DNA of 64,000 nt from Candidatus Gottesmanbacteria bacterium (GTDB lineage Bacteria > Patescibacteriota > Microgenomatia > UBA10105 > UBA927). The position numbers and the translations under genes are program-made. The stretch is taken from assembly GCA_023245335.1 (NCBI GenBank), contig JAHFKK010000001.1, forward strand, positions 17,918-81,917. The letters are read 5' to 3'. The notes below the pieces were generated by a model, which saw only the letters and a list, made by a program, of their open reading frames with translations, searched no databases and had not been told where the DNA came from. Positions 15,945 to 32,501 of the stretch are shown piece by piece (the stretch's first letter is position 1; each line of letters starts with the position of its first letter).

Positions 15945-17600
15945 ATGCTTGTGATGAAAAAAATACTTCATTGGATGACTATCAATCCCGGCTTCGTGTT
16001 GGTTTTCGTTTTTTTGGTGGTAGAGCTTGCCGTCATGAATGATTACGGCCTGACGTGGGATTTTCATTTCCATTTCTTCGGCGGAGGAAAACTCTTGGGC
16101 TACAGCTGGCAACAACTCGAATCCCGCCCGCTCCCTTATGTAGAGCCGGATCCAAGAAACGCTTGGACATTGCCGTACGGTCCCCTCATGAGCATACCCC
16201 CGGTCGCATCATTCCTCCTTTTGCATAATGCGTGGCACGTTTTAGCCTTCGACAATGCATACAATCTCCCGATTATTCTCTGGGGTGCAATTGGCGTCGC
16301 CATACTCTATCTCTTTCTTGATGAAGCATTTGGGAAACGGGTCGCATTACTCGGCGCGTTGTTTTTAGCATTGACCCCCCGATACGTAGGAGACTTGCAC
16401 AACAACATGAAGGATGTGCCATCCGCAGTGTCGTTTGCACTCAATATATGGCTTCTCTGGCGCCTCGCGAAATTCCGTAAGCCAATCGACCTCCTGTGGG
16501 CCATCCTTGCCTTTGCACTAGCTTTCAATGTCAAAATCAACAGTGTCTTCATACCGGTCGTCTTTGGTATATGGCTGCTTCTTACCCATGCGACAATTCC
16601 CAAAATAAAAACGCTTCTCAACCTGAAAAAACCGTTTATTTGGTTTTTTGTCCTCGCGCCGCTTGCTGCGTTCTGGGTATGGGCTATCTTTTGGCAGCAT
16701 CCGATTGCCCAAATTATCCAGGCATACTCAACCTTCGGCATCGGGACCAATAATATCGAAGTCTTACTGAACGGTTCGTGGTACTGCTCCGGCTCTACCG
16801 TCCCGTGGTATTACCCGTATTGGTATATGGCCATTACGACGCCTCTCCCCATCCTCCTCCTTTTTCTCACGAGTATCGCCGTGACCATTGCCGGCCGTAC
16901 ATCAAAGCTTGCACCGACACTCTTTCTTTTTCTGCTGTGGTTCTTTATCCCACTCACCCGGTATTTCCTCCCGACAATCGGAGTCATAGATGGCGTACGG
17001 CACTTCGAAGAAGTTCTCTTCCCCATTGCAGCACTTGCTGCAGTTACACTCGACATCCTGCTTACACTCATGGGGCGCGTTAGAAAACGAGGCATGGGAA
17101 TAGCTCTTTTGATAGGAATCATGGCGTGGTTAGGATGGAATATTGTTTCGTACCATCCGTATGAAATTACGTACTTTAACGAATTAGTGGGGGGTGTCCA
17201 TGGAGCATTCAGTAAATACGACCTGGACTACTGGGGCACGAGTCAGAAGGCGGCAATAAAATGGGTAAATTCTCACGCGCCGCAGAATGCAAAAGTGCAT
17301 ATCGTCATGGCCGCAGATGTCGCGGGGATGTATCTTCGGTCGGATTTACTTCCCAACCTCAATAAATTCGGGTACGACGAGTCAGACTTTGTTGTATTTC
17401 TTAACCGCCAATCATTCTTTTATCGGTTTTTCTACGCATACGAATACTTATTGCGGCATACACCGACGTACACAGTAAGCGTCCACAACACACCGCTAAC
17501 TTGGGTATTTGATAACCGGACCCATAACACGACACCGCGTCAGACCCCGTGGTGGCAGGCAGAAGATCCGTGCATCTTGCCATACTGGCACGCGAGATAA
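15945..17600 (+). CDS. Polytopic membrane protein, GT-C/PMT_2-like glycosyltransferase
   Basis: 551 aa with many TM helices and ArnT/PMT-like topology. Starts 2 nt after the upstream gene. Confidence 0.55.
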   Translation: MLVMKKILHWMTINPGFVLVFVFLVVELAVMNDYGLTWDFHFHFFGGGKLLGYSWQQLESRPLPYVEPDPRNAWTLPYGPLMSIPPVASFLLLHNAWHVLAFDNAYNLPIILWGAIGVAILYLFLDEAFGKRVALLGALFLALTPRYVGDLHNNMKDVPSAVSFALNIWLLWRLAKFRKPIDLLWAILAFALAFNVKINSVFIPVVFGIWLLLTHATIPKIKTLLNLKKPFIWFFVLAPLAAFWVWAIFWQHPIAQIIQAYSTFGIGTNNIEVLLNGSWYCSGSTVPWYYPYWYMAITTPLPILLLFLTSIAVTIAGRTSKLAPTLFLFLLWFFIPLTRYFLPTIGVIDGVRHFEEVLFPIAALAAVTLDILLTLMGRVRKRGMGIALLIGIMAWLGWNIVSYHPYEITYFNELVGGVHGAFSKYDLDYWGTSQKAAIKWVNSHAPQNAKVHIVMAADVAGMYLRSDLLPNLNKFGYDESDFVVFLNRQSFFYRFFYAYEYLLRHTPTYTVSVHNTPLTWVFDNRTHNTTPRQTPWWQAEDPCILPYWHAR

Positions 17601-17611
17601 CATACGCACAT

Positions 17612-19027
17612 ATGCAGATCACACCACATACATCCCGGATTTCCTTCCGGACTCTCATCTCTGCGATAAGTTTGTATGCCCTGATCCATTTCTTTTTTTT
17701 GTGGATGTATACCAACATCGATGGATATTTTTACTGGGCAATAGGTCAATACCTCAAAACCGGTGTATATCCATTTGTCTCTCCGTTTATATACGCAATG
17801 CCAATCACCATATCGCCGCCTTTGTACGGAATATTCATTGCGTTTATCGGCTCGATACCGGCAGGAGATATCATCCTGCATGGAATACAGATTCTTCTCA
17901 TGACGACCACAACACTTCTACTGTACCGTCTACTTCTCACGTCAATCAAACCATATGCAGCGACCATTATAAGCATCCTCTTTCTTTTGTTTCCGGTTAA
18001 CGTCATCTACACCGGCTCCATGATGACCGAATTGGCGGCCCAAACCACGATGACAATATATCTTTTCCTTGTCTATCGGTTTACCAAAACAAAGAATATT
18101 TCTTTTCTGGCTTCCGCGATACTTCTTACCGGATGCATGACGCTCCTCAAATATCAATTTGTAATCCTTTTTATCTTTACAATAAGCTATCTGGTAGTTT
18201 CTTTCCCTAAAAAACAGTCACTCTCTCATTTCAATGGACTAAAGGTTTTCTTTGCGGTCGTTGTCATCACCACCTGGATTATCACCAACCACTCGATGAC
18301 CGGCGTCTGGGGGCTATCCGATACCAAAAAAATGCCATTTTATACGAACTTCGTATGGGATGGGAGGCACTTTCCCAAAAAAACAGATCCGTCAGTTATC
18401 GCTTTACGTCAATATGTTCCCCCTACAGCTGACCGCTACGCTGAATATTGGGATTTGCAGGGATATATCCTTCCCTATGCGCATAATGACTGGCGGGTCG
18501 TGGATGAACTTCTGGGGAATGTCGGGATTGCGGCAATCAAAACATATCCGATCGAATACATGCTGAACGGTATACGGGTATTTGTGCAAACGCTCGCCAG
18601 TCATAGCCCCTGGTGGTACAACCTACAGACCTTCGGATCCATTGACCCCGTACAACCGGTCAATTGCACCCGATTAGGAACCATTCAGTTCTGCCGGCCC
18701 ATCATCATGACCCCCTGGTCATACCCTATCTGGAACCGATATGTTGCCATATCAGCGAAGATATATAACATACTCGTTCCTTTATTACTCCTCTTTCTAT
18801 TCTTACCTTCACTGGTGATTACGTTACTGGATAAACGGATACGTATATACAGTATCATCTATCTTGTAAGTCTCGTTCCCATCTCCTATCTTGCCATGGT
18901 GGAATCACGCTACCTTATCCCGTATTATCCGCTCATAATTATCATTTGCGTCCAGGGAGTGAAAAATGCACGCGCCATACTGTCGCGCCTTGCGAACCGA
19001 ATGCAAACCAAAAAAGCAAAAGAATAG
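17612..19027 (+). CDS. Polytopic membrane protein, putative GT-C glycosyltransferase
   Basis: Multi-TM protein with loop motif TNIDGYFYWAIGQYL. Start chosen at the Met after the upstream stop; the longer ORF from 17549 overlaps the upstream gene. Confidence 0.5.
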   Translation: MQITPHTSRISFRTLISAISLYALIHFFFLWMYTNIDGYFYWAIGQYLKTGVYPFVSPFIYAMPITISPPLYGIFIAFIGSIPAGDIILHGIQILLMTTTTLLLYRLLLTSIKPYAATIISILFLLFPVNVIYTGSMMTELAAQTTMTIYLFLVYRFTKTKNISFLASAILLTGCMTLLKYQFVILFIFTISYLVVSFPKKQSLSHFNGLKVFFAVVVITTWIITNHSMTGVWGLSDTKKMPFYTNFVWDGRHFPKKTDPSVIALRQYVPPTADRYAEYWDLQGYILPYAHNDWRVVDELLGNVGIAAIKTYPIEYMLNGIRVFVQTLASHSPWWYNLQTFGSIDPVQPVNCTRLGTIQFCRPIIMTPWSYPIWNRYVAISAKIYNILVPLLLLFLFLPSLVITLLDKRIRIYSIIYLVSLVPISYLAMVESRYLIPYYPLIIIICVQGVKNARAILSRLANRMQTKKAKE

Positions 19028-21071
19028 AAATAACGCTGATCCCTCCCCCGATAAGAAAAATTTTCGGGCGGTATTCATAAATGATCACATGATTTCCCGG
19101 TAATACATAAAGTGTTCGGAACGTACCATTTAGCTTGTTAATAGGTACTTCTTTCCCATCTACGGTCGCGTGCCAGCCCGGATACCATACCTCTGAACTG
19201 TTGAGTTCGCTATTGCAGGAAGAGGTGAGACTGATCCGTACCGTATTGGGTGTGTATGAAGTGACTAACGGCGTTCCGCAGGCAGGATTTGCCAGAAAAA
19301 ATCTGGGTTGGACCGTCTGATTTTGGTACACATGAAAACGCGCGGCTGTATTCACCATTACGGGGAGGTATCGTGAATTACCAGCAAAGGGATCGTACTC
19401 CATGGGCACGATAATGTATTTAATATTGAGAAAATCCAAAGCTTCTGGGCTTTGGGGAGTCAGATATGGCACTTGTACGTCCTGCAAAAGAATCGCTTTG
19501 TCACTCGCCATCATGGCAGAACGGGACATGAAGTCGTAGTAGCGACGAAGTATGGACGGGTCATAACCGGTCGCAGAAAATATTTCGTAACTCATCACCC
19601 CATCAAAATCCAGAGCGTCCCGCTGGGGCAACCAAACCCCAAAATCCTGCAAGACCCGATATGGCTGCGTATCTTTTTTCAGTAAGGCAATAAGCGCCTG
19701 ATCATGTCGCGCTTCCGGTACCGGTTTCAACTCGATAAATCCTCGACCGAACCACATCAACTCTCCGACAACACACACTGCCAATATTATCTGGATCACT
19801 TTCGGCCGCACCGCCGACAAACCTATACCAGCGAGCCCCGCAAGCCCAAACACTACCAAAATAAGATGTCTCGTGGGAATCCGCAGGTACTTATACATAG
19901 GAAGGAATTTCCAGAGGAAGTACTGCAAATCCAATGGCGCATTCGGTCCGAGACTCATCCAGATACCAAAAATAACAATGAAAATAAATACCATTCCCGC
20001 GAACATATCCGGATTTTTCTCTTTTATAACCCGGTGACCTCCAAATAATCTCCGCACGATACGTACTCCCCCAATGATTGCGAGTAACAAACCACCGATC
20101 CCCACAAATACGCTGTGTTCTATAAAGTTCGGCGGCGGGCCTATATACGTATGCTGATTACCGAAAAAAAACGGATTCAAAAACTGCATCAGGCTCTGCC
20201 AGGTCCAAGATCCGTATGAAATCCACGAATAGGGAAACGAATATGTGCGTATGCTGGATCGAAAAAATTCTTGTTCCGGCAAGATTTGGAGAGCGGCAAG
20301 ACCCAAGCCCAGCACCCCGGCTGCCATCGCACAGATAACCGGTATAAAACTGCGGCGGATCACACTAACGACCACAGTCATCAGTCCGACAATATAAACC
20401 GTAAAAAACGCCATCGTCTGATACCCGGCAAACAGTTGCATGGCAAACACAAACGAGGCAAGTGCCAGACGCCTCGACGCACCGGGAGAAAAGAATTTTT
20501 CGCGGGATGTAATTAACCGGTAAAACGCCCACGCTACCCACGGCATCCAGCTCGCCGCAGCGATGACATCCACATGCCCGGCCCACGTACGAGCCATGAA
20601 GAATCCGGACAACCCGAAGACCAAGCCGCTCACCCAAGCAGCCAAATTAAATTCATTCCTTCTTTTTGTTAACGGTAAACTGTTACCTGTTACCTGTTTA
20701 CTAAGTACATACATCCCCGTCATAGCCCAAAGCACATGAAATGCGACGTGCCATGAATACGCGGTGTTGATGGGTAAAAGGACAAACAACCAATTAGGCG
20801 GATACCATATATTGACGATGGGATCTGCAATAAACGGCTGTCCCCCAAATAGATATGGATTCCACCACGGGAATATGCCCAAACGTAACCAGTAGTTAAA
20901 AAATTCTCTGAAATAATAGTACTGATGATGAATGTCATCACCAAAAAGAAGCATCCCCTTCCCTGGGATTAAGGCTCCCCCAAAAACAAGAGATATGACG
21001 ATGCCGTAGGAAACGATCGGTATTCCCCAACGAACGAGTGAGCGCTTCATGCGATGCCCCAAGCGTATCAT
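18942..21071 (-). CDS. YfhO-family membrane protein (putative glycosyltransferase for cell-surface glycopolymer/protein glycosylation)
   Basis: N-terminal YfhO signature GDDIHHQYYYFREFFNYW...PWWNPYLFGGQPF and C-terminal WYPGWHATVDGKEVP motif. 709 aa, polytopic. Confidence 0.7.
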   Translation of the reverse strand: MIRLGHRMKRSLVRWGIPIVSYGIVISLVFGGALIPGKGMLLFGDDIHHQYYYFREFFNYWLRLGIFPWWNPYLFGGQPFIADPIVNIWYPPNWLFVLLPINTAYSWHVAFHVLWAMTGMYVLSKQVTGNSLPLTKRRNEFNLAAWVSGLVFGLSGFFMARTWAGHVDVIAAASWMPWVAWAFYRLITSREKFFSPGASRRLALASFVFAMQLFAGYQTMAFFTVYIVGLMTVVVSVIRRSFIPVICAMAAGVLGLGLAALQILPEQEFFRSSIRTYSFPYSWISYGSWTWQSLMQFLNPFFFGNQHTYIGPPPNFIEHSVFVGIGGLLLAIIGGVRIVRRLFGGHRVIKEKNPDMFAGMVFIFIVIFGIWMSLGPNAPLDLQYFLWKFLPMYKYLRIPTRHLILVVFGLAGLAGIGLSAVRPKVIQIILAVCVVGELMWFGRGFIELKPVPEARHDQALIALLKKDTQPYRVLQDFGVWLPQRDALDFDGVMSYEIFSATGYDPSILRRYYDFMSRSAMMASDKAILLQDVQVPYLTPQSPEALDFLNIKYIIVPMEYDPFAGNSRYLPVMVNTAARFHVYQNQTVQPRFFLANPACGTPLVTSYTPNTVRISLTSSCNSELNSSEVWYPGWHATVDGKEVPINKLNGTFRTLYVLPGNHVIIYEYRPKIFLIGGGISVISILLLFWFAFGSQGATVWRVHFSLPGRK

Positions 21072-21808
21072 ACTTTTTCTGCGACGACGACGAGGCTGGC
21101 GCCAAAAGGCAGATGACCCCGGAAAATAATAGTGTCTGCACGCAATATGGTCAGTAATATCCTATTGAAAAGCGGGTTTGGCATCGTAAGGTACTGCATG
21201 ATAAGATCCTCCCTCCCCTTGCCCGCCATCAAACGCCACATGATGTATGCGGGTAATAATATCGAATTCCAATACCCCATATGCCTCACCCGCAAACCGG
21301 ATTCCGCAAAAAGCTCCCGGAGTCCGTCTTTGGTGTATCGGCGTTTATGACCGGACAGCACATCGACTGATGACCATAAATACTTTTCTGCTGGGACAGT
21401 CAAAAAAAGTAGTCCTCCCGATATCAGTAAATTTTTGCACTGCCGTAAAAACGCCGCGTCATCACCGATGTGTTCCATGACGTCAAATGCGCCTAACGCG
21501 GCAAATGGACGTTTGGGGTGATACTGGAATATCGTGGAACGTACGAGCGTGCTGTCTGTTCTCCGTTTCGCATAGGAGAGTGCACGCGCGTTTATGTCGA
21601 GCCCAGTAGCCACAAATTTCAGCTGTTCCAGGTATTCCAGCGTTACCCCTGTCCCGCATCCGATATCCAAAAATGTTTTTCCCTGAGGGTTCTGCACATA
21701 TCGACCGATAAGTCCTCTGATCATTTCATCCCTGCCGACAAACCAAAAGTGTTCGGCTTCAACCTCATGAATATGCTGATAGTGTGACGCGCGGTAGAAT
21801 CGGGACAT
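21068..21808 (-). CDS. Class I SAM-dependent methyltransferase
   Basis: Motif I FLDIGCGTGVTLEYL and post-I acidic residue, then LLISGGLLFLTV. Its start overlaps the stop of the downstream gene by 4 nt. Confidence 0.75.
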   Translation of the reverse strand: MSRFYRASHYQHIHEVEAEHFWFVGRDEMIRGLIGRYVQNPQGKTFLDIGCGTGVTLEYLEQLKFVATGLDINARALSYAKRRTDSTLVRSTIFQYHPKRPFAALGAFDVMEHIGDDAAFLRQCKNLLISGGLLFLTVPAEKYLWSSVDVLSGHKRRYTKDGLRELFAESGLRVRHMGYWNSILLPAYIMWRLMAGKGREDLIMQYLTMPNPLFNRILLTILRADTIIFRGHLPFGASLVVVAEKV

Positions 21809-21811
21809 AGT

Positions 21812-23497
21812 TCAACGGGAAGTATACACGGTGACCGTCGGATTTGTGTACGCCTCGGTCAGAAACGGATAGCACTCTGTAAGCACTTTGCCCCCGGCTT
21901 CTTCCCGTTCCTGTGGGCCAAAGAATATCACATGCGTCGGTATCGTACTCAGCCAGGCCTTCGCTTCTTCGGCACTCATCGCGCCCGAATAGAATTTCGA
22001 GACGAGAACTTTCTTCACTTCTGCATTCACAGTGTTGTCATGACCCACGTAGACCGTATTGCCGCTGTAGACCGGCATGTAATTCCCGGCCGTCGTTTCC
22101 GACAGAATGACGTCGGTCCTTTTTGTCTGATCTTCAAGATAGAGCATCGCGGTATAAAAGTCCTTCAATGGATACATAACATAACTGCCGGTAGGGACCA
22201 GTGGCGTCGTTGCCCGGATTTTGTGATCCACGAAGTCCTTTTGCCACAGAAACGACGAATACATTTGTCCTATTCCCAAAATAATAAGTGCTGTCGGGAG
22301 GAGTACGGCGAGAAACCGGACCGCGGAACGCGTTTTTTCATACATTACCGAGACTGCATACGCCGTGAGTATCCCCAGGGGTACATGAGGAATCATTTCC
22401 GAAAACCGTAACGGACTTTGCTGCGGGACAAATTGAAATACTCCCAAAAGGATGAGCCACGCCAAAACCCAGGCGACCGCGGGGTACATAGCGGTTTCAC
22501 CGCTCACGAGGGCGACGATAACGCCAATAACTCCAAGCGGCAGCATCGGCCCTAAAGCTTTGCCGTATTCCCCATACTGAAACGGTAATGGGTGCAGGAC
22601 ATCCAACTCCGTCAGACGTTTCCACGGATAAACGCTCGTTATGAGGGCAAGATATATAAGCGCGATACTGCTCATGACGGCTATCGCAGCATACGGCGTG
22701 AGCCACGCACGCATTTTGGCAAATCGAAGGAGGCCATATACCCCAAGGACGGCGAATAAAAATATAAGTCCGGGAGGAAATATGACACCAAGGACACATG
22801 CCAAAACTCCCAAAAATAAAACATTGCCGGACTTACGTATGACGGAGAAATCAGTGAGCGCCATAACCAAAAAGATGATGAGACTCTGTCCTGCCAATAA
22901 ATGCGGGATAAAGGTAATCCGTTGAAGACTGTCCATGACGGACCACCAAGGCATGTAACCTCCGAATCTTGGAGATCCATCGACAGAGGTGAGAATTGGC
23001 CAGGAGCTTGCGGTGACCGCCAGAAGAAATCCAATGATCGCAATACTTTTGCGGCGGCCCGCAGTAAATATGCTCTGACTAAATGCGGCAATAAGGGCAA
23101 GGATAGTAAATCCCAATATCACACGAGCCGCATGATAAACATCCCCACTTCTCCCCTGCGGCACGCCTATCCAACGGCCCATATCTCCCATGAGGACATA
23201 CATTTCCTGAATGACTGATCCGTTATGCGGTTCCGAAGTGTACTTTTCTACGACCGTCCAGCGCCCTTCCAAACCTTCACGGATGCGGGACAAATAGAAG
23301 TTGTAGTCCGTATAGAAATTGTGGACTAATTCGAAGTGACGATCCGGCTGAAGGTCCCCCGCATGGTTCAGCTCATAAAATGTCGAGATCAAAGAAAATA
23401 CGACAAATGCTGTGATAAGTATCTGCCACGTCCACCTCATGCGTTTCGCGTTTCCCTCGGCTGTTTTCTCGATGCCTTCCCTGCTCATACGTACCAT
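21812..23497 (-). CDS. Polytopic membrane protein, putative GT-C glycosyltransferase (paralog family member 2)
   Basis: Shares DYNFYLSRIREG and FGGYMPWW motifs and a C-terminal soluble domain with 14264..15943 and 25531..27090. Confidence 0.55.
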   Translation of the reverse strand: MVRMSREGIEKTAEGNAKRMRWTWQILITAFVVFSLISTFYELNHAGDLQPDRHFELVHNFYTDYNFYLSRIREGLEGRWTVVEKYTSEPHNGSVIQEMYVLMGDMGRWIGVPQGRSGDVYHAARVILGFTILALIAAFSQSIFTAGRRKSIAIIGFLLAVTASSWPILTSVDGSPRFGGYMPWWSVMDSLQRITFIPHLLAGQSLIIFLVMALTDFSVIRKSGNVLFLGVLACVLGVIFPPGLIFLFAVLGVYGLLRFAKMRAWLTPYAAIAVMSSIALIYLALITSVYPWKRLTELDVLHPLPFQYGEYGKALGPMLPLGVIGVIVALVSGETAMYPAVAWVLAWLILLGVFQFVPQQSPLRFSEMIPHVPLGILTAYAVSVMYEKTRSAVRFLAVLLPTALIILGIGQMYSSFLWQKDFVDHKIRATTPLVPTGSYVMYPLKDFYTAMLYLEDQTKRTDVILSETTAGNYMPVYSGNTVYVGHDNTVNAEVKKVLVSKFYSGAMSAEEAKAWLSTIPTHVIFFGPQEREEAGGKVLTECYPFLTEAYTNPTVTVYTSR

Positions 23498-23549: not shown

Positions 23550-24104
23550 ATGAGCGCCCCACTTACGGATGAATCCATTGATAATAAAGTCAGAAATACC
23601 GTCTATGTCCAAGACTACAGCGCGAAACCCAAAATTGACGGTGTGGTCATCCTGACCATCAAAAATTTTGTCGGGGAAAACGGTGATTTTTCCGAACTCC
23701 TGCGTTTAAATGATGAGGGTGAATCAGAGCAGATTCCGGGATTCCGGCCCCGCCAGATAAACAGAAGCAAACAATATAACAAAGCAATCAAAGCGTGGCA
23801 TCTTCATTATCGCCAAGATGAAATCTGGTACGTCCCCCCGGACGAACATCTCCTTTTGGGCTTATGGGATGTGCGGGAGGGTTCTGCTACCAAAGATACG
23901 ACACAAAAAATTCCTCTGGGCGGCGGCAACTCCATCGCTGTCTACATCCCCCGGGGTGTCGCCCATGGGGCGGTAAATTTTTCAGGCAAAAAAACGAACG
24001 TCTACTACTTCGTAAATAATCAGTTTGACCCCGCCAATCCTGACGAACAACGTTTACCATGGGACGCCCGTGGTGCTGATTTTTGGCTTGCCCAGCGTGA
24101 CTAA
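23550..24104 (+). CDS. RmlC-like cupin (dTDP-4-dehydrorhamnose 3,5-epimerase / sugar 3,4-ketoisomerase family)
   Basis: Alignable to RmlC: WHLHYRQDEIWYV...IPRGVAHGAVNFSGKKTNVYYFVNNQFDPANPDEQRLPWD, compared with E. coli RmlC ...[38 protein letters not shown]. Confidence 0.75.
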   Translation: MSAPLTDESIDNKVRNTVYVQDYSAKPKIDGVVILTIKNFVGENGDFSELLRLNDEGESEQIPGFRPRQINRSKQYNKAIKAWHLHYRQDEIWYVPPDEHLLLGLWDVREGSATKDTTQKIPLGGGNSIAVYIPRGVAHGAVNFSGKKTNVYYFVNNQFDPANPDEQRLPWDARGADFWLAQRD

Positions 24105-24802
24105 TGCGGCAAATTACAAGTCTCTCCATCTTTTTCCCAAGCCTCAACGACGCCCAATCACTCCCCTACATGGTTACCCGCGCATACGAAGCCGCCCGGT
24201 CTATCACTCATAATTTTGAAATCATCATCATAGACGACGGCTCGACGGACGACACCCTACGGGTCGTCTCGGAATTACGGCGACACTATCGTCACCTCCG
24301 GCTTGTCACGCATCCCAAAAACCGCGGATATGGCGGTGCGTTGATATCGGGATTTACGGCGGCAAAAAAAGAATGGGTATTTTATACCGACGGAGACGGC
24401 CAATATGACCCATCGGAACTCACACTCCTTATCAACAAGGCCTCTTCACGTACGGACGTCGTGAACGGATATAAGGAAAAAAGACACGATCCGCTCATGA
24501 GAATCATCGCCGGATCTATCTATAACTGGTTCATCCGGATTATTTATCACCCGCCGATACGTGATATTGATTGTGATTTCCGTCTCATTCGACGCTCACT
24601 GTTGAAACGGTTGGACCTCACATCACAATCAGGAGCAATTTGTCTGGAACTCGTGACCAAACTCCATCACCGGGGTGCACGATTCCGAGAGGTCGCCGTG
24701 CATCACTATCCCCGGCTATTCGGACGATCTCAATTTTTCTCACTCCGGCGGATTGCCAAAACTATCGAACAACTTCCTCCGGTAACGCATCATATGTATT
24801 AA
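24104..24802 (+). CDS. GT2 glycosyltransferase (DPM1/GtrB-like)
   Basis: SIFFPSLNDAQ...EIIIIDDGSTDDT...GGALISGF...YTDGDGQYDP. Start overlaps the upstream stop (ATGA-type junction). Confidence 0.75.
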   Translation: MRQITSLSIFFPSLNDAQSLPYMVTRAYEAARSITHNFEIIIIDDGSTDDTLRVVSELRRHYRHLRLVTHPKNRGYGGALISGFTAAKKEWVFYTDGDGQYDPSELTLLINKASSRTDVVNGYKEKRHDPLMRIIAGSIYNWFIRIIYHPPIRDIDCDFRLIRRSLLKRLDLTSQSGAICLELVTKLHHRGARFREVAVHHYPRLFGRSQFFSLRRIAKTIEQLPPVTHHMY

Positions 24803-24857: not shown

Positions 24858-25526
24858 ATGGAAACCGAACCCGATGCACCTTCCAATATTCTCTTTCCCG
24901 CGCTTCTCATAAGTATCGTGTTACTCGGGATAGTTTATATCGCCTTCCAGGCGGCGAAAGCCCGTCCCGACAGGATAATTTTGCCCGGCGGTATTACGTA
25001 TCTCGGTCCTTCCGTGACACCGACGCCTGCTGCAAACTCCTCGACAGGCAACCTTGATGCCATTCTCATTCCTTCAAATCCCACATGGGCAACGTATAAA
25101 GGAAAACTTTTCCCCTACACATTCACCTACCCATCGACACTTTCTTTAGGCTGGTTTCCGAACGATCCGTATGACGCAGTCACCGTGTTTTACGGAAAAA
25201 CCGATGCAAACAAAAATGTATTCTTCCGCGTCGATGACCTCACCAAGCTTCATAAAACCGCATATACCGGGAACGTAAAAGGATATGCCCAAAGCTGGTG
25301 GAAAGACTATTCGTGGAAGGGAATTTCTTCCATCACACCATTTACAAATGGTAAAGGGCTGAAAGGATATCGCGCAACATATATCGACCAGTCGGACAAA
25401 ACGCCGTACGATCACGTATTTTTCGAGACTCCCCAAAGACGCGACCTCATTATATGGATAAGCGGCAAAATCTTTCCGCGGGAAATGTTCGATAAGATAG
25501 TTGATAGTGTCCAGTGGAGCGACTAA
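24858..25526 (+). CDS. Hypothetical membrane-anchored (signal-anchor) exported protein
   Basis: N-terminal TM helix (ILFPALLISIVLLGIVYIAF) followed by an aromatic-rich soluble domain. No recognised family. Confidence 0.45.
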   Translation: METEPDAPSNILFPALLISIVLLGIVYIAFQAAKARPDRIILPGGITYLGPSVTPTPAANSSTGNLDAILIPSNPTWATYKGKLFPYTFTYPSTLSLGWFPNDPYDAVTVFYGKTDANKNVFFRVDDLTKLHKTAYTGNVKGYAQSWWKDYSWKGISSITPFTNGKGLKGYRATYIDQSDKTPYDHVFFETPQRRDLIIWISGKIFPREMFDKIVDSVQWSD

Positions 25527-25530
25527 ATTC

Positions 25531-27090
25531 ATGCAACTTACTCTTGCGTTCATCATTATCCTTCTTGCTACCCTAGAAAACGTCTGGCCGATAATCGCGG
25601 GGTTCCAAGCGGCACCCAAGGGTGTGGTGTTTTTGGGCACCATACACCATTCCGGCGACTACTTCTATTATTTATCGCAGTTTGCCCAAGGGGCGACGCA
25701 CTGGCTTATGGGGCGGGATCTCTATACGTCTGAATCCGTTCCCCCAGTCCTCGTCGGATGGTCTAATATATTTTTCGGGCACATCTTCCATCTCGTCGGT
25801 TTCTCGCAGATCAGCGCGTATCACACCAGTGTCATTATCCTAACGATACTCCTTATGGCTTGCGGCTATAGACTGGCATTCTCCGTATTCGGATCCCGAC
25901 GTCCGTCGATCCTCACCCTCTACCTTTTTGTCCTCTATCATGCATTCCCGATACGGGATCACGGAACACTTACCTACAGCGATTATTGGAATAACTACGC
26001 AATCCCGAACGTCCGTTTGGGCGGCGTGCCACACCAGCTCTTCACAGCAATTATCTCAATAATCGCTCTTTTTGGAATAATCGACTGGTTGAAAGCCTCC
26101 CAAAAACGACAATGGGGGCATATATCCATCCTCACGGTATCCGGATTAATGCTTGCTTCACTACAGCCGGTCTTGTGGGCATTGCTTGTGATAAGTTCCG
26201 GTGCGACTTTACTTATATATGGACTATCACAAAAGTATAAACTAAAACAATTGAGTACTTTGTGTATACCTGTTATATGTATAGGAATCGGCGGAATTTT
26301 TCCGGCTTTATACCTGACTAAATTATTTTCCCAACTCCCGTTTTTGCAACTCAAGCTCTGGGAATCTGTCCAACAGAATCAATTGTCGTTTTCGCATTTC
26401 ATTCTTGCGACCGGACCGATATTCCTTATCGCCATAATTGCAGTGCCTTCTTTTCTGAAGGCAAAAACTCCGGAAAAGCTCATCCTTGCGATATTTGCCG
26501 GCAGCTCACTGCTTCTTTCAATCTCCCCGATCCCCGCACTCATAGGCATCACCCAAGTCCGCTTCATGTCGACCCTCACTATTCTCGCCTTTTCTATAAT
26601 CGCCGCGTACGGCTTATGGAAATGCTTCCACGGGAAGCCACTTATCATCATTCTTGCGCTTCTTACTGCCATCCTCCTTCCGAGTCATCTCAAAACGATC
26701 AGTCTCACTAGCGCATTTGATCCGGGGAACGCGTACCAGTACCTATCCGCTTCTGACTACACATTTTTACAAACCGCAGCGAAAGTAAGTAAGGATGATG
26801 AGGATGTCTTCCTTATTATATGGCCGTACGACGTCATTTTCCCCGGGCTCACCGGCAGGCGCAGCTTCAACGGACACACACTCCTCACAATTCATTCGGC
26901 CCAAAAAGACAGCATGTCCCAACTTTTTTTTGACGGATCTATGTCGGAGGTTGAAATGCGTAATCTTCTGATCACAAACCATGTCGGCTATGTATTAGGC
27001 TACACCTGGAGTCCCAAACTTGAACTTCTCCCGTTCCTTACGCGCGTAACTTCTTCACCGAATCTGGTTTTATACCGGGTCGATAAATAA
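25531..27090 (+). CDS. Polytopic membrane protein, putative GT-C glycosyltransferase (paralog family member 3)
   Basis: Shares DYFYYLSQFAQG, LGGVPHQ and a C-terminal FDGSMSEVEMRNLL region with the other two paralogs. Start taken at MQLTLAFIIILL just after the upstream stop. Confidence 0.55.
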   Translation: MQLTLAFIIILLATLENVWPIIAGFQAAPKGVVFLGTIHHSGDYFYYLSQFAQGATHWLMGRDLYTSESVPPVLVGWSNIFFGHIFHLVGFSQISAYHTSVIILTILLMACGYRLAFSVFGSRRPSILTLYLFVLYHAFPIRDHGTLTYSDYWNNYAIPNVRLGGVPHQLFTAIISIIALFGIIDWLKASQKRQWGHISILTVSGLMLASLQPVLWALLVISSGATLLIYGLSQKYKLKQLSTLCIPVICIGIGGIFPALYLTKLFSQLPFLQLKLWESVQQNQLSFSHFILATGPIFLIAIIAVPSFLKAKTPEKLILAIFAGSSLLLSISPIPALIGITQVRFMSTLTILAFSIIAAYGLWKCFHGKPLIIILALLTAILLPSHLKTISLTSAFDPGNAYQYLSASDYTFLQTAAKVSKDDEDVFLIIWPYDVIFPGLTGRRSFNGHTLLTIHSAQKDSMSQLFFDGSMSEVEMRNLLITNHVGYVLGYTWSPKLELLPFLTRVTSSPNLVLYRVDK

Positions 27091-27245: not shown

Positions 27246-28058
27246 ATGGGCACACCCGACAACCTACCAGGCAGAGAAGTATTTAACCGCGGGGCTCCAG
27301 GCTACAGCGAGCTCCATTATCATGTCCGTATAGACGCCATGACCCCTGAAGAAAAACTTGACTGGCTTTCGAGTCACATCCTGAAAGAAGAACATCGATT
27401 GTTACGGGAACCATATAACCTCCCGCAGGTGCGGAGAGAAGGAAAGGTTATGTTCCTCACGGGCGGGCCGAAAAGCGATGTCACCGAAGCCAGAGACTTT
27501 GAAGGCAACCTTATTCATACACGCCATCTGGATCATCCTCGGCCGATGTTCGCAGAGATTCCTGAAGCCCTCAATTCCATATCCCATTGGTTTGACCTCA
27601 ACACACAGAGCCAGGAACAAAACACACCCCCGCCATCTGTGGTCGCACCGCTTTCGGAAATATCGGATGTCGTCTATAACGTTTCGCATCTCCTCACCCT
27701 GGATCCCAGCTTCGGGGAGAATTATACCGAATATCTCAACCGCATCTCTGGGTCGCTGGGTTATTCCCTGGACCAACTGCTGACGCTTGCTGTTTACAAA
27801 TACAACTTTCGCCTGGGTCAGGGCAAATCCCAAAAAAATATTGCCGTCGAAAACAATATCCTTGAAAAGGTCATCTCCCAAAAAGGGGTTGACGGCAAAC
27901 TCCTCTATTCTCCGCCGACGGAGACACAGCTCCAAAAGACCTACCATACCCTCGCAGAAGTTCAGGGTCTTCTCAATACCCGACTTGAACAAATGCGTCA
28001 GGATTACGAATGGAACATAGAAAAAACCGCGAGAATCCCCTCGTCCCTCACCCCATAA
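27246..28058 (+). CDS. Hypothetical soluble protein
   Basis: 270-aa ORF filling the gap between membrane-protein genes. A strong sigma70-like promoter lies immediately upstream. No recognisable domain. Confidence 0.45.
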   Translation: MGTPDNLPGREVFNRGAPGYSELHYHVRIDAMTPEEKLDWLSSHILKEEHRLLREPYNLPQVRREGKVMFLTGGPKSDVTEARDFEGNLIHTRHLDHPRPMFAEIPEALNSISHWFDLNTQSQEQNTPPPSVVAPLSEISDVVYNVSHLLTLDPSFGENYTEYLNRISGSLGYSLDQLLTLAVYKYNFRLGQGKSQKNIAVENNILEKVISQKGVDGKLLYSPPTETQLQKTYHTLAEVQGLLNTRLEQMRQDYEWNIEKTARIPSSLTP

Positions 28059-28100: not shown

Positions 28101-29963
28101 ATGCGACTTCATGCTACGGTAAAGCGTCACATTTTACAGCTAGCCATCCTGTTTGCTCTTTTCTTGCGCATCTCACTTATATTCAACCCCGGATTTGAAG
28201 CGGATGTTTCATTCTGGAAATCATGGGGGCTTGCCACATACGATAAAGGCATTGTTGAAGGGATGAAAATCACCAACAATAACTACCCTACCCCATTTGC
28301 GTATGTCCTGGGCGGCATGGTGTGGATCTACAGCCGTTTTGCCGACCCGCATAGCTTCAACACGTTTTGGAATAGTACGAATGTCCTTTTTCTTGCGGTC
28401 AGTAAAGCATTCCCGATACTCGCTGACTTTGGTATTGCCGCTCTCATTTTATACATCGGTAAAAATACAAAGAAGTTAGGATTTCCAGATATACCGTTTT
28501 CCGTATTTGGTTTGCCTTTCTATGAGCTATTAACTATTTGCTATTTACTGAGTCCATTAAGTCTTATAGACGGGGCGTGGTGGGGCCAGGTTGACTCACT
28601 CGGCGTCTTCGTATTTTTTTGCTCGCTCATCTTCGCTCTCAAGCGTCGGCCGTTCTTTGCCGGACTCTTTTTTGTAGTGGCCATGATGACCAAACTTCAG
28701 AATATGATCTACGGACCGATATTTTTTTTGTTCATCTGGCAGATGGAGGGATACAACGGACTCATTCAGGCGCTTGGGGGGGCGGTCATAGGATTTTTTG
28801 GACTCAACATAGAATTTTTCCTCACCCGCAATATGGATCGGGTGCTTGCAAACCTCACGGAAAATTTTGATTACTTTCCCTGGATGAGCCTCAACGCTTT
28901 CAACCTCTGGTGGATAGTGAGCGGCGGCCACGGCATGCAGGTATCGGATAAGCTTCTTGCTCTTGGGATAGTGAACGCAAAAACAGTGGGATTAATACTA
29001 TTTTCGGGTTTTTATCTTTTCGCCATGATCCAACAGTTTTTTACCGGAAGTACCTCCGTAACCCGTCGGACAACGGTGCAGGGATTTCTTACGAGTCTCA
29101 TACTCGTCAATGCCGCATTTTTTCTATTCCAGACCCAGTCACACGACCGGTATGCATTCCCCCTCTCGGTTTTTCTCCTTCTCTGGGCGCCGTTTTATAT
29201 ATCACAATTCTCGTCACCCGCTACTCAGAACTCGCGCCTCAAACTATTTACTATTTACTATTTACTCTTTACTCTCTTCTATTTTTATAACCTCCACACA
29301 GCGCTCGTCGTCAACTATCCGCTCAATGGTTTACCCATTCTCTCCTCCTTCACCCAACCGGCGTTTACGATGACGACCGCGGTCATACTCCTTGTGCTTT
29401 TTGGGGTATTTATCATGACGGTAATCCGTTCTTCCCGGCGCTCAATGAACTATGCACTGCTCTCGACGGGTGTCGTCGTCGTGGCTCTCATATTTCTCAA
29501 TAAACCGCTTCTGACTAAACAACCGGTCTCCCTGACAAAATTCGTGCCGTATATAAGCGAACAAGCCTATGGAACGCGCCAAACCAATAGGTCTGTCCAA
29601 AGTTCGTTCGGCGGGCCCACCAGCTGGACCAGACTTTCAGACCAGTACGTATTTTATCGCCTCGGCATAGGAACACACGCTAACTCCCGTCATGTCTTTG
29701 ACCTCAATGGACTGTTTAAACGATTTACGACAGATTTCGGTATCGACACGGAGGCCGGCACGAAATCGAGCGCTGTGTTTGAAGTCTATGGCGACGGCAA
29801 GCTCCTGTTCCGATCAGGAGAGGCCATGGGCCGCTTCGACCTACCAAAACACGCCGACGTGAACGTTATCGGCGTCAAATCGCTCACCCTCATCACGACC
29901 GACGCGGGAGACGGCAACTATGACGATCACACCGACTGGTTCAATCCGCAGCTTTGGCCATAA
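28101..29963 (+). CDS. Polytopic membrane protein (GT-C-like) with C-terminal NPCBM carbohydrate-binding module
   Basis: Roughly 400 aa of TM helices, then a ~120-aa NPCBM/NEW2-like domain (GIGTHANSRHVFDLNG...FGIDTEAG...FEVYGDGKLLFRSG...GVKSLTLITTDAGDGNYDDHTDWFNPQL). Confidence 0.6.
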   Translation: MRLHATVKRHILQLAILFALFLRISLIFNPGFEADVSFWKSWGLATYDKGIVEGMKITNNNYPTPFAYVLGGMVWIYSRFADPHSFNTFWNSTNVLFLAVSKAFPILADFGIAALILYIGKNTKKLGFPDIPFSVFGLPFYELLTICYLLSPLSLIDGAWWGQVDSLGVFVFFCSLIFALKRRPFFAGLFFVVAMMTKLQNMIYGPIFFLFIWQMEGYNGLIQALGGAVIGFFGLNIEFFLTRNMDRVLANLTENFDYFPWMSLNAFNLWWIVSGGHGMQVSDKLLALGIVNAKTVGLILFSGFYLFAMIQQFFTGSTSVTRRTTVQGFLTSLILVNAAFFLFQTQSHDRYAFPLSVFLLLWAPFYISQFSSPATQNSRLKLFTIYYLLFTLFYFYNLHTALVVNYPLNGLPILSSFTQPAFTMTTAVILLVLFGVFIMTVIRSSRRSMNYALLSTGVVVVALIFLNKPLLTKQPVSLTKFVPYISEQAYGTRQTNRSVQSSFGGPTSWTRLSDQYVFYRLGIGTHANSRHVFDLNGLFKRFTTDFGIDTEAGTKSSAVFEVYGDGKLLFRSGEAMGRFDLPKHADVNVIGVKSLTLITTDAGDGNYDDHTDWFNPQLWP

Positions 29964-29966
29964 TCT

Positions 29967-32501
29967 ATGAAACAATTGGAGAAATACGCCGGGATATTGA
30001 TGCTTATCTTTGCCGTCGGATGTAATCTCTGGGTCTATCGGGTGGAACCCACAGTCCAGACGGACCCTAATGACAATACGTTTCAGTACGCCCTTGTGGA
30101 CCGTACAAACCAGATATGGGACTACGCAAATACCAATTGTTCAGGCCTTATGAAGCCGTTTTGCATGCTCTCGCTCCTTACCGATCATTGGGTCCCGAAC
30201 TGGGCAGAAGGATATAACCTCCCATATTACTACTCGCATATTCCTCAAGTCGTCATTGTCTCCTCGTACCGTTTGTTTTCTCTCTTGAGTCCTCACGCTT
30301 CTCTCTTTCTTTATTATCACTGGATTACCTATCTCCTGTTGTCTTTTTTCCCGTTGGCTTTGTTTGCGGCATTTACGGTCATAGGCGTATCACCCATTAC
30401 CGCCGGATTTGGGGCCATTGTCGCGACCCAAATTTCGACCGACGGGTTATACGGATTGGATCCTTCATCATTTCTGTGGCGGGGATACGGATTAACCAGT
30501 CAGTTATATGCGATGGTATTTTTTCCCCTGGCTCTCGCCTACATCTCAAAATTATTCCAATCCGAATCGAACGATCGGGAGTACATCATATGGCACTCAC
30601 GCTTCATACTCCCTGACATAAAAACCTTCATACTCGCGACTCTGTTTTTGGCGGCGACGACCGCCGGCCATTTAGGCATCGGCATCATCGCATTTTTAAG
30701 CGCCGGAGTTATAGCAATGAGCCCGACGGTACAATCCGTACTACAAAATACATGGGATAGGGAGGCATGGCGCAGATTCCAATCCGACGTTCTCAAATTA
30801 TGTATATTATTTACCGGCGTCGGACTCCTCCTCGGATACTGGATTCTCCCCATCCTCAAAGACGGCAACTACCATAACACCTCGGTGTGGGATCCCATTT
30901 GGAAATTTGATTCTTATGGATACCGTGAGATACTCAAAAACTTTTTTAACGGTGATTTATTTGATTTCCACCGATTCCCCACGTTAACTATTTTTGTCAT
31001 CATTGGCCTCTTTACCGGCTTCTTGAGCGCGGGGAGGCAAGCATTTTTGAGAACCGTCACGCAGCGTAGCAACAATAAAAAACTTAATGACGGCATGCCT
31101 GACGGAGACGCAAAAAATGTCTTGCCGACCTCAGCGCAATATTTTCCCTTCGCACTTCTTTTTGTCTTCTGGCTCCTTCTCTACTTCGGCACCACGACGT
31201 GGGGCTCTATCCTCTACCTCATTCCCGGCATGCGAGACTTCCATATATCGCGCTTCATCGTCGGGGTCCACATGGCGGGACTCTTCCTCATCCCCATCGG
31301 ATTTCAATGGATTATTACAGCAATGTGGCGAGTCGGAACAAAATTACTGCAGCTCCTTACGCGCCGGCTGACGGGGCTTCCCGAAAAAGTAACGGAGCAA
31401 GAAAATTTTGCTTACGCCGTCGGCCAAGTACTCCTTACGATTATCATCGTCTTTTCCATATATCCCCAAACCATCTCCTATGCCACATATAATGACTTCC
31501 TTATTAAACGCGGGAATACAAATTACCTGAAAGTACAATCTGATACCGAACTGCTTCTCACTACGCTCCGAAAATACGAGGCTCAAAAACCCGGCCGGGT
31601 TTTTGCAGGCCGGGGAGGCTCATGGGGCAAAGACTTCCGGGTTGCAGAAACGCCCTATTTTATGTATCTTTCGACCTATGGCATCCCCACAGTCCTGTGG
31701 CTCCCGGAAACTTGGTCTCCCAACTCTGATATAGAACAGTATTTCAGCGAAAATAAGGCCGCAGACTACAGCCTCTACAACATCCGCTACGTGGTGACCC
31801 CCGCTAACATGTCTCTCGATCTGATCCAACCCTTCTGGAAGCCTCTCACCGCCTCAAAAACGTGGAAACTATACGAGGTGACGACGGAGGGATATATAAC
31901 GACGGGAATCCGGCCGGCAATCGTCTCCACGGCCAAAGATAACTACATAAATGTGGTCCGGTTATGGATCCAGTCCGACTTTCCCAAAAACAGACTCTAT
32001 CCGGAGTTGACCTTTGACAAAAACTATCCCGTGAGCTCCGGCCTTCCCAATTTCCGCATGACCGATGAAGTCACGTACAAAGTGCCGGGCGGCTCACTAC
32101 ACGACCTTTTCGCGGAAAACCCAACGTATATCGCACCAACAGGAGAAAAATTTGTTTCCCCGAGCGTATCCGATCAATCTGACGATCATGACATGCGCTT
32201 TACCGCAACATTCACGGTTCCTCCGAACTGCGTGGAATGTCTTGTCGTCCTGGGCCAAAGCTTCCATCCGTCGTGGCGCGCCGCAGTAGACGGGAAAGCA
32301 ACCGACACATTTGCCGTATTTCCGTTTTTTACGGCAATAGAGGTGACAGAACCGGGAACGCATACTGTCGTGTTTTCATACCAAGCTTCCCCGCTAAAAA
32401 TAGTGCTTCTCGCGGTTTCGATTCTAAGCTTGGGTGGAATTGTGTGGTGGATGCGACCAAAAAAAATGCACAATGATCCGCACAAAAGGCAACATGAATG
32501 A
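29967..32501 (+). CDS. YfhO-family large polytopic membrane protein (second paralog)
   Basis: N-terminal PNDNTFQYALVDRTNQIW and C-terminal HPSWRAAVDGKATD...PGTHTVVFSYQASPLKIVLLAVSILSL align with the YfhO-like protein at 18942..21071. 844 aa. Confidence 0.55.
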   Translation: MKQLEKYAGILMLIFAVGCNLWVYRVEPTVQTDPNDNTFQYALVDRTNQIWDYANTNCSGLMKPFCMLSLLTDHWVPNWAEGYNLPYYYSHIPQVVIVSSYRLFSLLSPHASLFLYYHWITYLLLSFFPLALFAAFTVIGVSPITAGFGAIVATQISTDGLYGLDPSSFLWRGYGLTSQLYAMVFFPLALAYISKLFQSESNDREYIIWHSRFILPDIKTFILATLFLAATTAGHLGIGIIAFLSAGVIAMSPTVQSVLQNTWDREAWRRFQSDVLKLCILFTGVGLLLGYWILPILKDGNYHNTSVWDPIWKFDSYGYREILKNFFNGDLFDFHRFPTLTIFVIIGLFTGFLSAGRQAFLRTVTQRSNNKKLNDGMPDGDAKNVLPTSAQYFPFALLFVFWLLLYFGTTTWGSILYLIPGMRDFHISRFIVGVHMAGLFLIPIGFQWIITAMWRVGTKLLQLLTRRLTGLPEKVTEQENFAYAVGQVLLTIIIVFSIYPQTISYATYNDFLIKRGNTNYLKVQSDTELLLTTLRKYEAQKPGRVFAGRGGSWGKDFRVAETPYFMYLSTYGIPTVLWLPETWSPNSDIEQYFSENKAADYSLYNIRYVVTPANMSLDLIQPFWKPLTASKTWKLYEVTTEGYITTGIRPAIVSTAKDNYINVVRLWIQSDFPKNRLYPELTFDKNYPVSSGLPNFRMTDEVTYKVPGGSLHDLFAENPTYIAPTGEKFVSPSVSDQSDDHDMRFTATFTVPPNCVECLVVLGQSFHPSWRAAVDGKATDTFAVFPFFTAIEVTEPGTHTVVFSYQASPLKIVLLAVSILSLGGIVWWMRPKKMHNDPHKRQHE

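Follow-up and report, generated by a model that had tools for sequence, protein, structure and literature searches.

A GT-C-fold membrane protein, probably a glycosyltransferase, with a C-terminal NPCBM/CBM51 module in Candidatus Gottesmanbacteria

A single uninterrupted ORF (28101–29963, forward strand) in the 64,000-nt stretch of Candidatus Gottesmanbacteria DNA analysed here (the window) encoded a 620-aa protein that joined a polytopic GT-C-fold transferase domain (aa 1–468; 28101–29504) to a C-terminal NPCBM/NEW2 module, a CBM51 beta-sandwich predicted to be extracytoplasmic (aa 487–618; 29559–29954). The window contained one copy of this gene. Based on the ORF, Pfam, an AlphaFold2 model, Foldseek and homologues, the protein was classified as a GT-C-fold membrane glycosyltransferase. 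With a probability of roughly 0.6, we consider it a GT-C transferase with a lipid-linked-sugar donor, whose CBM51 module holds the acceptor glycan at the outer membrane face.

The identity of the C-terminal module was determined by profile and structure comparison. PF08305 matched the protein with E = 2.3e-29 and 102.6 bits, far above the cut-off of 23.9, over profile positions 14–136 of 137 (Pfam), and the family profile matched solved CBM51 modules in the PDB (7JS4, E = 4e-30; 2VMG, E = 1e-19). In the AlphaFold2 model (pLDDT 83.7, pTM 0.82), the module superposed on 2VMG with a TM-score (TMt) of 0.80 at 32% identity (Foldseek, E = 1.3e-8); further matches on the CBM51 side were 7JS4, 7JRL, 8PVS, 2YGL and 2VNG. 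These results confirmed the initial annotation, which had assigned the last ~120 aa to NPCBM/NEW2: the peptide it quoted began at G522 (nt 29664) inside the ORF, and its span (29601–29960) fell within the domain, without only the first ~14 residues.

The invariant residues of the module were Y516, Y519, G522, G524, H526, D545, G547, D549, T550, D565, H584, D609, H610, D612 and W613, among which Y519 and H526 aligned with a Tyr and a His of 2VMG. The GTHAHS segment of 2VMG aligned to GTHANS, with its second His at the position of N528, which was variable (N/P/R); judging from this alignment, one of the two sugar-contacting His of GH95CBM51 may be replaced in the window protein. The Clostridium perfringens GH95, GH98 and ZmpB CBM51 modules (2VMG, 2VNG, 7JS4, 7JRL) belong to the same Pfam family, have the same beta-sandwich and share the GIGTH, G(I/V)D and DxxDH motifs. 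Characterised CBM51 members bind galactose, GlcNAc or blood-group antigens. Three binding modes are known for CBM51 (PMC9513282). While the C. perfringens modules are part of secreted glycoside hydrolases or M60 peptidases, the window module was the C-terminal part of a membrane transferase. The view that NPCBM is typical of secreted glycoside hydrolases was too narrow: M60 peptidases also carry the domain (PMC3267712), as do intracellular conflict systems (PMC8195603).

The membrane part was predicted to have ~13 TM helices and a cytoplasmic N-terminus. Its description as GT-C-like was borne out by both fold and profile comparisons. The fold matched ALG6 (6snh; Foldseek with the AlphaFold2 model, E = 1e-5, TM 0.63/0.50, TMt 0.63), and EmbA/B (7bvc), PIG-M (9wno), PimE (9dm5) and STT3 (8age) were also matched. 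A close-family profile found no GT-C protein by sequence in the PDB; a broader profile of 51 divergent relatives was needed, which matched GPI mannosyltransferase I (E = 2.8e-13). Among 57 wider relatives, Pfam matches were to GT87 (21/57, E ≤ 1e-3), Alg6_Alg8 (11/57), PIG-U (6/57) and PMT_2. The 620-aa protein itself scored 19.1 bits against GT87 (PF09594), under the cut-off of 25, and precomputed PF09594 matches existed for just a few close homologues. By sequence, the protein is thus related to GT87 and yet not fileable as a GT87 member, and an NCBIfam search returned no family for it or for the neighbouring membrane proteins. By profile, fold and Pfam, its nearest kin were PIG-M/Gpi14 (GT50), PimE (GT87) and ALG6 (GT57), which, unlike the window protein, have no lectin module. 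These enzymes use polyprenyl- or dolichyl-phosphate sugars on the non-cytoplasmic face, and their first external loop contains an Asp. We infer the use of a lipid-phosphate-linked donor by the 620-aa protein.

Conservation pointed to a putative active site on the predicted outer side. The first external loop contained the motif PGFEADVSFWKSWGL (aa 30–44; 28188–28232) with Asp35 as the candidate catalytic acid. E33, A34 and D35 (in PGFEAD) were invariant in 44 close homologues, and D35, W42 and G50 were invariant in 51 relatives at 20–56% identity. Asp35 directly follows TM1, the location of the catalytic Asp in GT-C enzymes. Other invariant polar motifs were on the same predicted side. In the outward-facing WGQVD (aa 161–165; 28581–28595), W161 and D165 were invariant across the divergent family, and G162 and Q163 reached at least 90% conservation. 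In the outward-facing SHDRY (aa 347–351; 29139–29153), H348 was invariant in the broad family, and conservation was 90% or higher at position 349, R350 and Y351. The motif MTKLQNMIYGP (aa 196–206; 28686–28718), inside the region aligned to GPI mannosyltransferase I, was invariant in close homologues, and its K198 and P206 were invariant in the broad family.

Topology was assessed from hydropathy, charge bias and fold analogy. A model with 13 TM helices, the N-terminus inside and the C-terminus outside fitted the positive-inside rule across the 44 homologues: the N-terminus was basic, and the K+R density was 0.18–0.70 in the predicted cytoplasmic loops and 0–0.14 in the short external ones, except for the inside loop 215–220 (0.02) and the external loop 198–202 (0.20, due to K198 alone). 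Ahead of the last TM helix was a short basic loop, RSSRRS (aa 443–448; 29427–29444), with a mean K+R density of 0.30 vs 0.008 for the preceding external loop in the 44 homologues. This predicted cytoplasmic loop placed the C-terminus outside. The N-terminal half allowed two alternative helix assignments; since both totalled 13 helices, the C-terminus remained outside in either case. An earlier count of seven TM helices, obtained with high-threshold hydropathy, was dropped for the AlphaFold2-guided model. The NPCBM module is accordingly predicted to lie outside the cell, in line with its earlier placement on the outer face.

A short conserved linker (aa 469–486; 29505–29558) joined the last TM helix to the lectin module. 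The spacing from N467 to G522 was 54 or 55 residues in 44/44 homologues, and linker identity was 61%. Across the family, the NPCBM module was more conserved than the TM part (67% vs 62% identity), which, together with the fixed spacing, argues from sequence conservation that the module is under selection. The pTM of 0.82 indicates a defined inter-domain arrangement in the model.

The gene was located among surface-glycan genes, which made up the initial 33 kb of the window. Within a genome of ~1.2 Mb, this region of ~33 kb contained at least five recognisable GT-C genes and several unannotated polytopic membrane proteins. A YfhO-like GT-C enzyme of 844 aa (29967–32501, forward strand) followed after a gap of 3 nt and was directly downstream in 41/41 loci with full flanks. 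Many of its homologues had precomputed PF09586 (YfhO) matches. Its model (pLDDT 82.2) had an external beta-rich domain of its own and a C-terminal TM anchor, and matched AftD, DPY19, AglB/STT3, AftA and PglB (Foldseek). A GT2 akin to polyprenyl-phosphate sugar synthases was encoded 3.3 kb upstream (24104–24802, forward strand; Glycos_transf_2, E = 1.4e-25), with PDB matches to ArnC (E = 9e-23), DPMS (3e-10) and the GtrB-like sll0501 (1e-9); it had no C-terminal TM helices. Judging from these matches, it is a plausible synthase of the lipid-sugar donor, although just 12/41 related loci had it within 8 kb. Also conserved were a divergently oriented 561-aa polytopic membrane protein (21812–23497, reverse strand; ~9 TM-like segments), present in 41/41 full-flank loci and without a Pfam match, and a 222-aa protein with an external domain and one TM-like segment, a TM helix at its N-terminus (24858–25526, forward strand), kept in 34/41 loci and without a match in Pfam or NCBIfam. 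ORF 21068–21808 encoded a SAM-dependent methyltransferase. The neighbouring polytopic proteins of 561, 529 and 844 aa are not close paralogues of the 620-aa enzyme, because hhalign showed no relationship to the family profile. A crude scan of the window (ORFs of 70–200 aa with at least three TM-like segments) detected no GtrA-like flippase, which may be encoded elsewhere. The window also encoded an LRR protein and a giant multidomain protein.

We propose that a GT2 such as the ArnC/DPMS-like protein would make a polyprenyl-phosphate-linked monosaccharide in the cytoplasm, that a flippase would move it across the membrane and that the 620-aa enzyme would use it at the outer face of the cytoplasmic membrane. 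With Asp35 as catalytic base, the enzyme would transfer the sugar to a glycan or glycoconjugate of the cell surface. The CBM51 module would bind the acceptor or the growing product and position the glycan over the active site; acceptor binding would raise the local concentration and set specificity, comparable to EmbC, whose activity requires a C-terminal CBM that binds the acceptor (PMC3044687). The 620-aa and the adjacent YfhO-like enzymes would probably act on one polymer in successive steps. Acceptor-glycan recognition, as the initial annotation had suggested, can reasonably be inferred by analogy.

Two groups of known systems resemble parts of this scheme. In AftD, a GT-C membrane domain is likewise followed by one or more extracytoplasmic carbohydrate-binding modules, on whose binding of the acceptor glycan the enzyme depends for activity (10.1101/2019.12.22.885152), and EmbA/B/C (GT53) have the same kind of architecture. 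In contrast to the window protein, Emb and AftD belong to another GT-C family and have an unrelated CBM fold (not CBM51) and much larger external domains. The fold match to EmbA/B (7bvc) spanned both domains at a low TM-score (791 columns, TMq 0.36, rmsd 19.8; Foldseek), and the PDB profile searches gave no sequence match to Emb or AftD; the window protein resembles these enzymes in architecture and is not a member of their families. Similar to the GtrA/GtrB/GtrC and CsbB/YfhO systems, for which a three-component scheme of GT2, flippase and GT-C has been described (PMC11127046), the window locus combined an ArnC/DPMS/GtrB-related GT2 with GT-C enzymes, including one of the YfhO family. It differed from these systems in that the window scan gave no GtrA-type flippase, the GT2 had no C-terminal TM helices and its synteny was limited to 12/41 loci.

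An extension of the proposed mechanism, which we regard as speculative and rather doubtful, is that the CBM51-bearing and the YfhO-like GT-C enzymes form a dedicated two-enzyme module for a Microgenomates-specific surface polymer. The lectin would then read the product of one enzyme and present it to the other, acting as a ruler of fixed geometry or a processivity clamp.

Alternatively, the GT-C enzyme could be active while its CBM51 module acts as a tether to a glycan layer, for localisation or adhesion, without selecting the acceptor; we consider this unlikely. The target would be a wall or S-layer glycan of the same cell or, given that an attached life on other cells is common among Patescibacteria, glycans on the surface of a host cell. 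A tether would be consistent with the role of CBM51 on hydrolases and peptidases as a targeting or adhesion module for host glycans (PMC3267712, PMC9513282) and with the predicted location of the module outside the cell, and the LRR and giant multidomain proteins would fit a surface-interaction region. However, a short stretch of constant length separated the last helix from the GIGTH motif in all 44 homologues, which, together with the pTM, places the module near the membrane and the transferase, with no stalk for reaching out. The fusion was also present in Planctomycetota and Eisenbacteria, which are not known as episymbionts.

Certain GT-C-fold proteins, such as PIG-U, have no enzyme activity. 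The window protein could similarly be an inactive scaffold, comparable to PIG-U of the GPI transamidase, serving as a membrane-anchored lectin or substrate-presenting subunit from which the YfhO-like enzyme would receive a glycan, either lipid-linked or polymeric. PIG-U chains were among the fold matches (7w72_U, 7wld_U, 8imx_U; Foldseek) and among the Pfam matches of wider relatives, the GT87 score was under its cut-off and the YfhO-like gene was strictly adjacent. The invariance of Asp35 and several other external polar motifs down to 20% identity is active-site-like and argues against a scaffold, as do the sequence-level relationship to real enzymes such as GPI mannosyltransferase I and the common occurrence of ~400-aa relatives without any lectin domain. 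We therefore find an inactive scaffold improbable and retain an active, acceptor-binding transferase as the preferred reading.

The fusion had initially been called unusual, which proved an overstatement. Homologues formed at least 383 clusters at 90% identity, a lower bound, mostly from Gottesmanbacteria and other Microgenomates, and the fusion was carried by 34 of the best 150 representatives at 50% identity, including the planctomycetotal and eisenbacterial proteins. That it results from mis-assembly or frameshifted read-through of two genes is practically negligible as an explanation, because the full-length GT-C and NPCBM architecture was common to 120/120 best homologues among the matches listed; moreover, the ORF was uninterrupted, the identical protein was present in an independent Logan assembly and 79 genome loci encoded the fusion. 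In databases, these proteins are automatically named 'NPCBM/NEW2 domain-containing protein' or 'Gpi18-like mannosyltransferase' (the latter by JGI). In literature searches that also covered GT-C enzymes of Patescibacteria, we found no description of an NPCBM/CBM51 module combined with a GT-C domain.

Nothing is overturned by these results, as databases already list the architecture under automatically assigned names and the proposed mechanism has a direct precedent. They extend the principle of a GT-C enzyme with an external CBM past the mycobacterial Emb and AftD to another GT-C lineage and another CBM family. To our knowledge, the cell-envelope glycans of Patescibacteria (CPR) are almost entirely uncharacterised, although the small genomes of these bacteria devote much coding space to them. 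A conserved GT-C enzyme with a built-in CBM51 lectin is experimentally tractable, and the soluble module could reveal the sugar of the envelope polymer. If the proposal of a lectin-guided GT-C pair is true, such a pair would be previously undescribed and would provide a first handle on the envelope glycans of Patescibacteria.

The 620-aa protein encoded at 28101–29963 (+), hereafter the NPCBM enzyme, carried a genuine NPCBM/NEW2 domain at its C-terminus, well above chance: its Pfam-A match to PF08305 scored 102.6 bits (E = 2.3e-29), where the curated cut-off is 23.9 bits. The match covered residues 487–618 (nt 29559–29954; profile positions 14–136 of 137), and the initial annotation, which had placed the domain at 29601–29960, was essentially right. 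CAZy family CBM51 corresponds to PF08305 (PMC3267712). A sequence profile of 44 close homologues matched the solved CBM51 of ZmpB (7JS4) at E = 4e-30 and GH95CBM51 (2VMG) at E = 1e-19. In the AlphaFold2 model of the protein (mean pLDDT 83.7, pTM 0.82), the module aligned with 2VMG at a TM-score of 0.80 and 32% identity. Three binding modes are described for CBM51, of which that of GH95CBM51 relies on two His residues and a Tyr platform (PMC9513282). In the family alignment, Y519 and H526 were invariant, and the counterpart of the second His in GTHAHS was variable (N/P/R). Within the family, the module was no less conserved than the transferase part (67% against 62% identity). G522 lay 54 or 55 residues beyond N467, where the last helix ends, in 44/44 sequences, and this constancy argues for a lectin held at a fixed position relative to the enzyme. 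A tethering or adhesion function of the module was argued against by the short linker of fixed length and by the occurrence of the fusion in non-episymbiotic phyla as well.

The membrane part was GT-C-like, as initially annotated. With Foldseek, the first ~470 residues matched yeast ALG6 (6snh; E = 1e-5; TM 0.63 by target and 0.50 by query over 504 columns), and further matches were to EmbA/EmbB, GPI mannosyltransferase I, PimE, PIG-U and STT3. When residues 1–475 were searched with HMMER against the complete set of 1.84 billion representatives clustered at 50% identity, 1518 relatives were found at E ≤ 1e-3; among 57 scanned with Pfam, matches were to GT87 (21), Alg6_Alg8 (11), PMT_2 (6) and PIG-U (6). 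In a PDB search, a profile of 51 divergent relatives (20–56% identity) matched GPI mannosyltransferase I with E = 2.8e-13. Together, these fold matches, Pfam families and the divergent-profile match place the core in the GT-C superfamily, and it was classified as an enzyme with a GT-C fold, related to GT87/GT50/GT57. The protein itself scored 19.1 bits against Pfam GT87, under the cut-off of 25, and was therefore not assigned to that family; an NCBIfam scan gave no match. Homologues are named 'Gpi18-like mannosyltransferase' by JGI. Residues D35, W42, G50, W161, D165, K198, P206, N268, W270 and H348 were invariant in the 51 relatives. D35 lies within the motif PGFEAD, immediately after transmembrane (TM) helix 1, and in GT-C enzymes the catalytic acid is located directly after the first TM helix. 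The invariance of Asp35 and the other motifs, and the enzymatic nature of the relatives, argue against the membrane part being an inactive PIG-U-like scaffold. Six relatives (P0152, P0155, P0160, P0171, P0176 and P0265; 836–1161 aa) had two tandem GT-C domains and no NPCBM domain, an alternative elaboration of the same core.

The initial annotation had the module outside the cytoplasm, and the topology prediction agreed. The AlphaFold2 helices, hydropathy and the positive-inside rule over the 44 homologues were combined in a model of 13 helices whose N-terminus is inside. K+R density was 0.23 at the predicted cytoplasmic N-terminus and 0.18, 0.70, 0.18, 0.25 and 0.30 in the predicted cytoplasmic loops 121–139, 181–183, 316–324, 369–381 and 443–449, respectively, and was 0–0.14 in short loops predicted to be external. 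Two loops were exceptions: inside loop 215–220 (only 0.02) and external loop 198–202 (0.20, due to the invariant K198 alone). All invariant polar motifs (PGFEAD, WGQVD, MTKLQNMIYGP, the 242–284 loop, SHDRY and NYPxN) were predicted to be external, and the variable, insertion-prone loops fell on the predicted cytoplasmic side. If the N-terminal half is instead read with 64–78 as a TM helix and 199–235 as one helix, the number of helices ahead of the large external loop is again seven, so the C-terminus stays on the same predicted side. Locally, the RSSRRS loop (aa 443–448) before the last helix pointed most directly to the predicted outside position of residues 470–620.

The initial description of the fusion as unusual was overstated. 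Homologues formed at least 383 90%-identity clusters, of which the best 120 were all full length with PF08305, and 79 loci in GTDB species genomes encoded the protein; together with the occurrence of an identical protein in an independent Logan assembly, these 120/120 homologues and 79 loci refute an artefactual fusion. Named sources were Gottesmanbacteria, Woesebacteria, Microgenomates and 'Patescibacteria group'. A local HMM of the module detected a C-terminal NPCBM in 34 of the 150 top-ranked 50%-identity representatives for the TM domain, including Planctomycetota MFH0981635.1 and Eisenbacteria MCB9465004.1 (UniRef A0A956NDR3), as named by NCBI; other relatives were about 400–450 aa without the extension or had two tandem TM domains. 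Given these counts across clusters, loci and phyla, the fusion is a recurrent conserved architecture. Public databases already contain it under automatically assigned names, and a literature search found no paper on an NPCBM/CBM51 plus GT-C architecture. Gottesmanbacteria contig CAVQFA010000001.1 contained two copies ~17 kb apart (L037, 5826–23691; L080, 23491–41356), which shows that one genome can hold paralogues of the family. Many related GTDB records (L002, L005, L007, L010 and others), from TPA co-assembly MAGs, are titled 'uncultured Gammaproteobacteria bacterium'. Their proteins were 50–67% identical, with the gene order of the Gottesmanbacteria records, and the title seems to be a placeholder or a mislabel, not true taxonomy.

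The gene lies in ~33 kb of contiguous surface-glycan genes (1–33417), with several GT2, one GT4, a Wzy_C protein, two DegT aminotransferases, a hexapeptide acyltransferase, methyltransferases, an RmlC-like cupin and a PIG-L deacetylase. At least five GT-C proteins were recognisable: two PMT_2 (15945–17600 and 17549–19027), two YfhO-type (18942–21071 (-) and 29967–32501) and the NPCBM enzyme. Four polytopic proteins had no Pfam match (12697–14211 (-), 14264–15943, 21812–23497 (-) and 25501–27090 (+)). The last two share a layout of TM1, an ~80-aa external loop, about eight more TMs and a soluble tail, with a similar first-loop motif (HNFYTDYNFYLSRIREG vs HHSGDYFYYLSQFAQG), which suggests paralogous GT-C-like enzymes of an undescribed family. 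A DUF7282 protein (7043–7636 (-)) and a leucine-rich-repeat protein (7646–8467 (+)) were also within the cluster, the latter unexpected amid sugar-biosynthesis genes.

Among 41 related loci with full flanks, all had the 844-aa gene (29967–32501) directly downstream, after a 3-nt gap in the window, and the 561-aa membrane protein (21812–23497) upstream and divergent. The 844-aa protein resembles YfhO. Many homologues carry a precomputed PF09586 hit, and the protein's AlphaFold2 model (pLDDT 82.2), which has an external beta-rich domain of its own, matched AftD, DPY19, AglB/STT3, AftA and PglB. Upstream of the NPCBM enzyme, a 222-aa protein (24858–25526 (+); 34/41 loci) with a single N-terminal TM helix, a ~180-aa external domain and no family match may be a further component or substrate. 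Immediately upstream, a 270-aa soluble protein (27246–28058 (+)) without a match in Pfam or NCBIfam was confined to the closest relatives (10/41 loci) and so seems to have been inserted recently into the conserved order of genes. The GT2 at 24104–24802, syntenic in only 12/41 loci, was most similar to ArnC (E = 9e-23), then to DPMS and a GtrB-like enzyme; enzymes of these types load sugars onto polyprenyl phosphate. Unlike ArnC/GtrB (about 320–340 aa with C-terminal helices), it has 232 aa and no TM-like segment, so as a loader it would have to attach to the membrane by other means. A crude scan of the window for ORFs of 70–200 aa with at least three TM-like segments found no GtrA-like flippase. 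Convergent with the cluster, 33454–63906 (-) was a single unbroken ORF of 10,150 aa, ~2.5% of the ~1.2 Mb genome. Its only Pfam matches were Macro (aa ~2156–2248), GNAT (~2860–2955 and ~6586–6664), Beta-lactamase2 (~5458–5671) and, below threshold, a DnaJ N-terminus; the C-terminal 3350 aa had no Pfam match, and a related C-terminus occurred in only 3/41 loci.

Computation shows a GT-C fold in which an invariant Asp lies on the predicted external side, and a CBM51, also predicted to be external, at a fixed distance. A polyprenyl-phosphate sugar would be synthesized in the cytoplasm, flipped and used by the NPCBM enzyme on the outer face, following the general GT2, flippase and GT-C scheme (PMC11127046). 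We infer that the CBM51 would bind the acceptor or product glycan and offer it to the active site, and the neighbouring YfhO-like enzyme may act on the same polymer. The direct precedent is EmbC, whose C-terminal lectin-like CBM binds arabinan acceptors and in which CBM point mutants block lipoarabinomannan extension (PMC3044687). AftD has several CBMs. A GT-C enzyme with an external CBM was thus already known, and a CBM51 on a GT87/GT50-like core is new here. The NPCBM enzyme is mainly useful as a handle on the envelope glycans of Patescibacteria.
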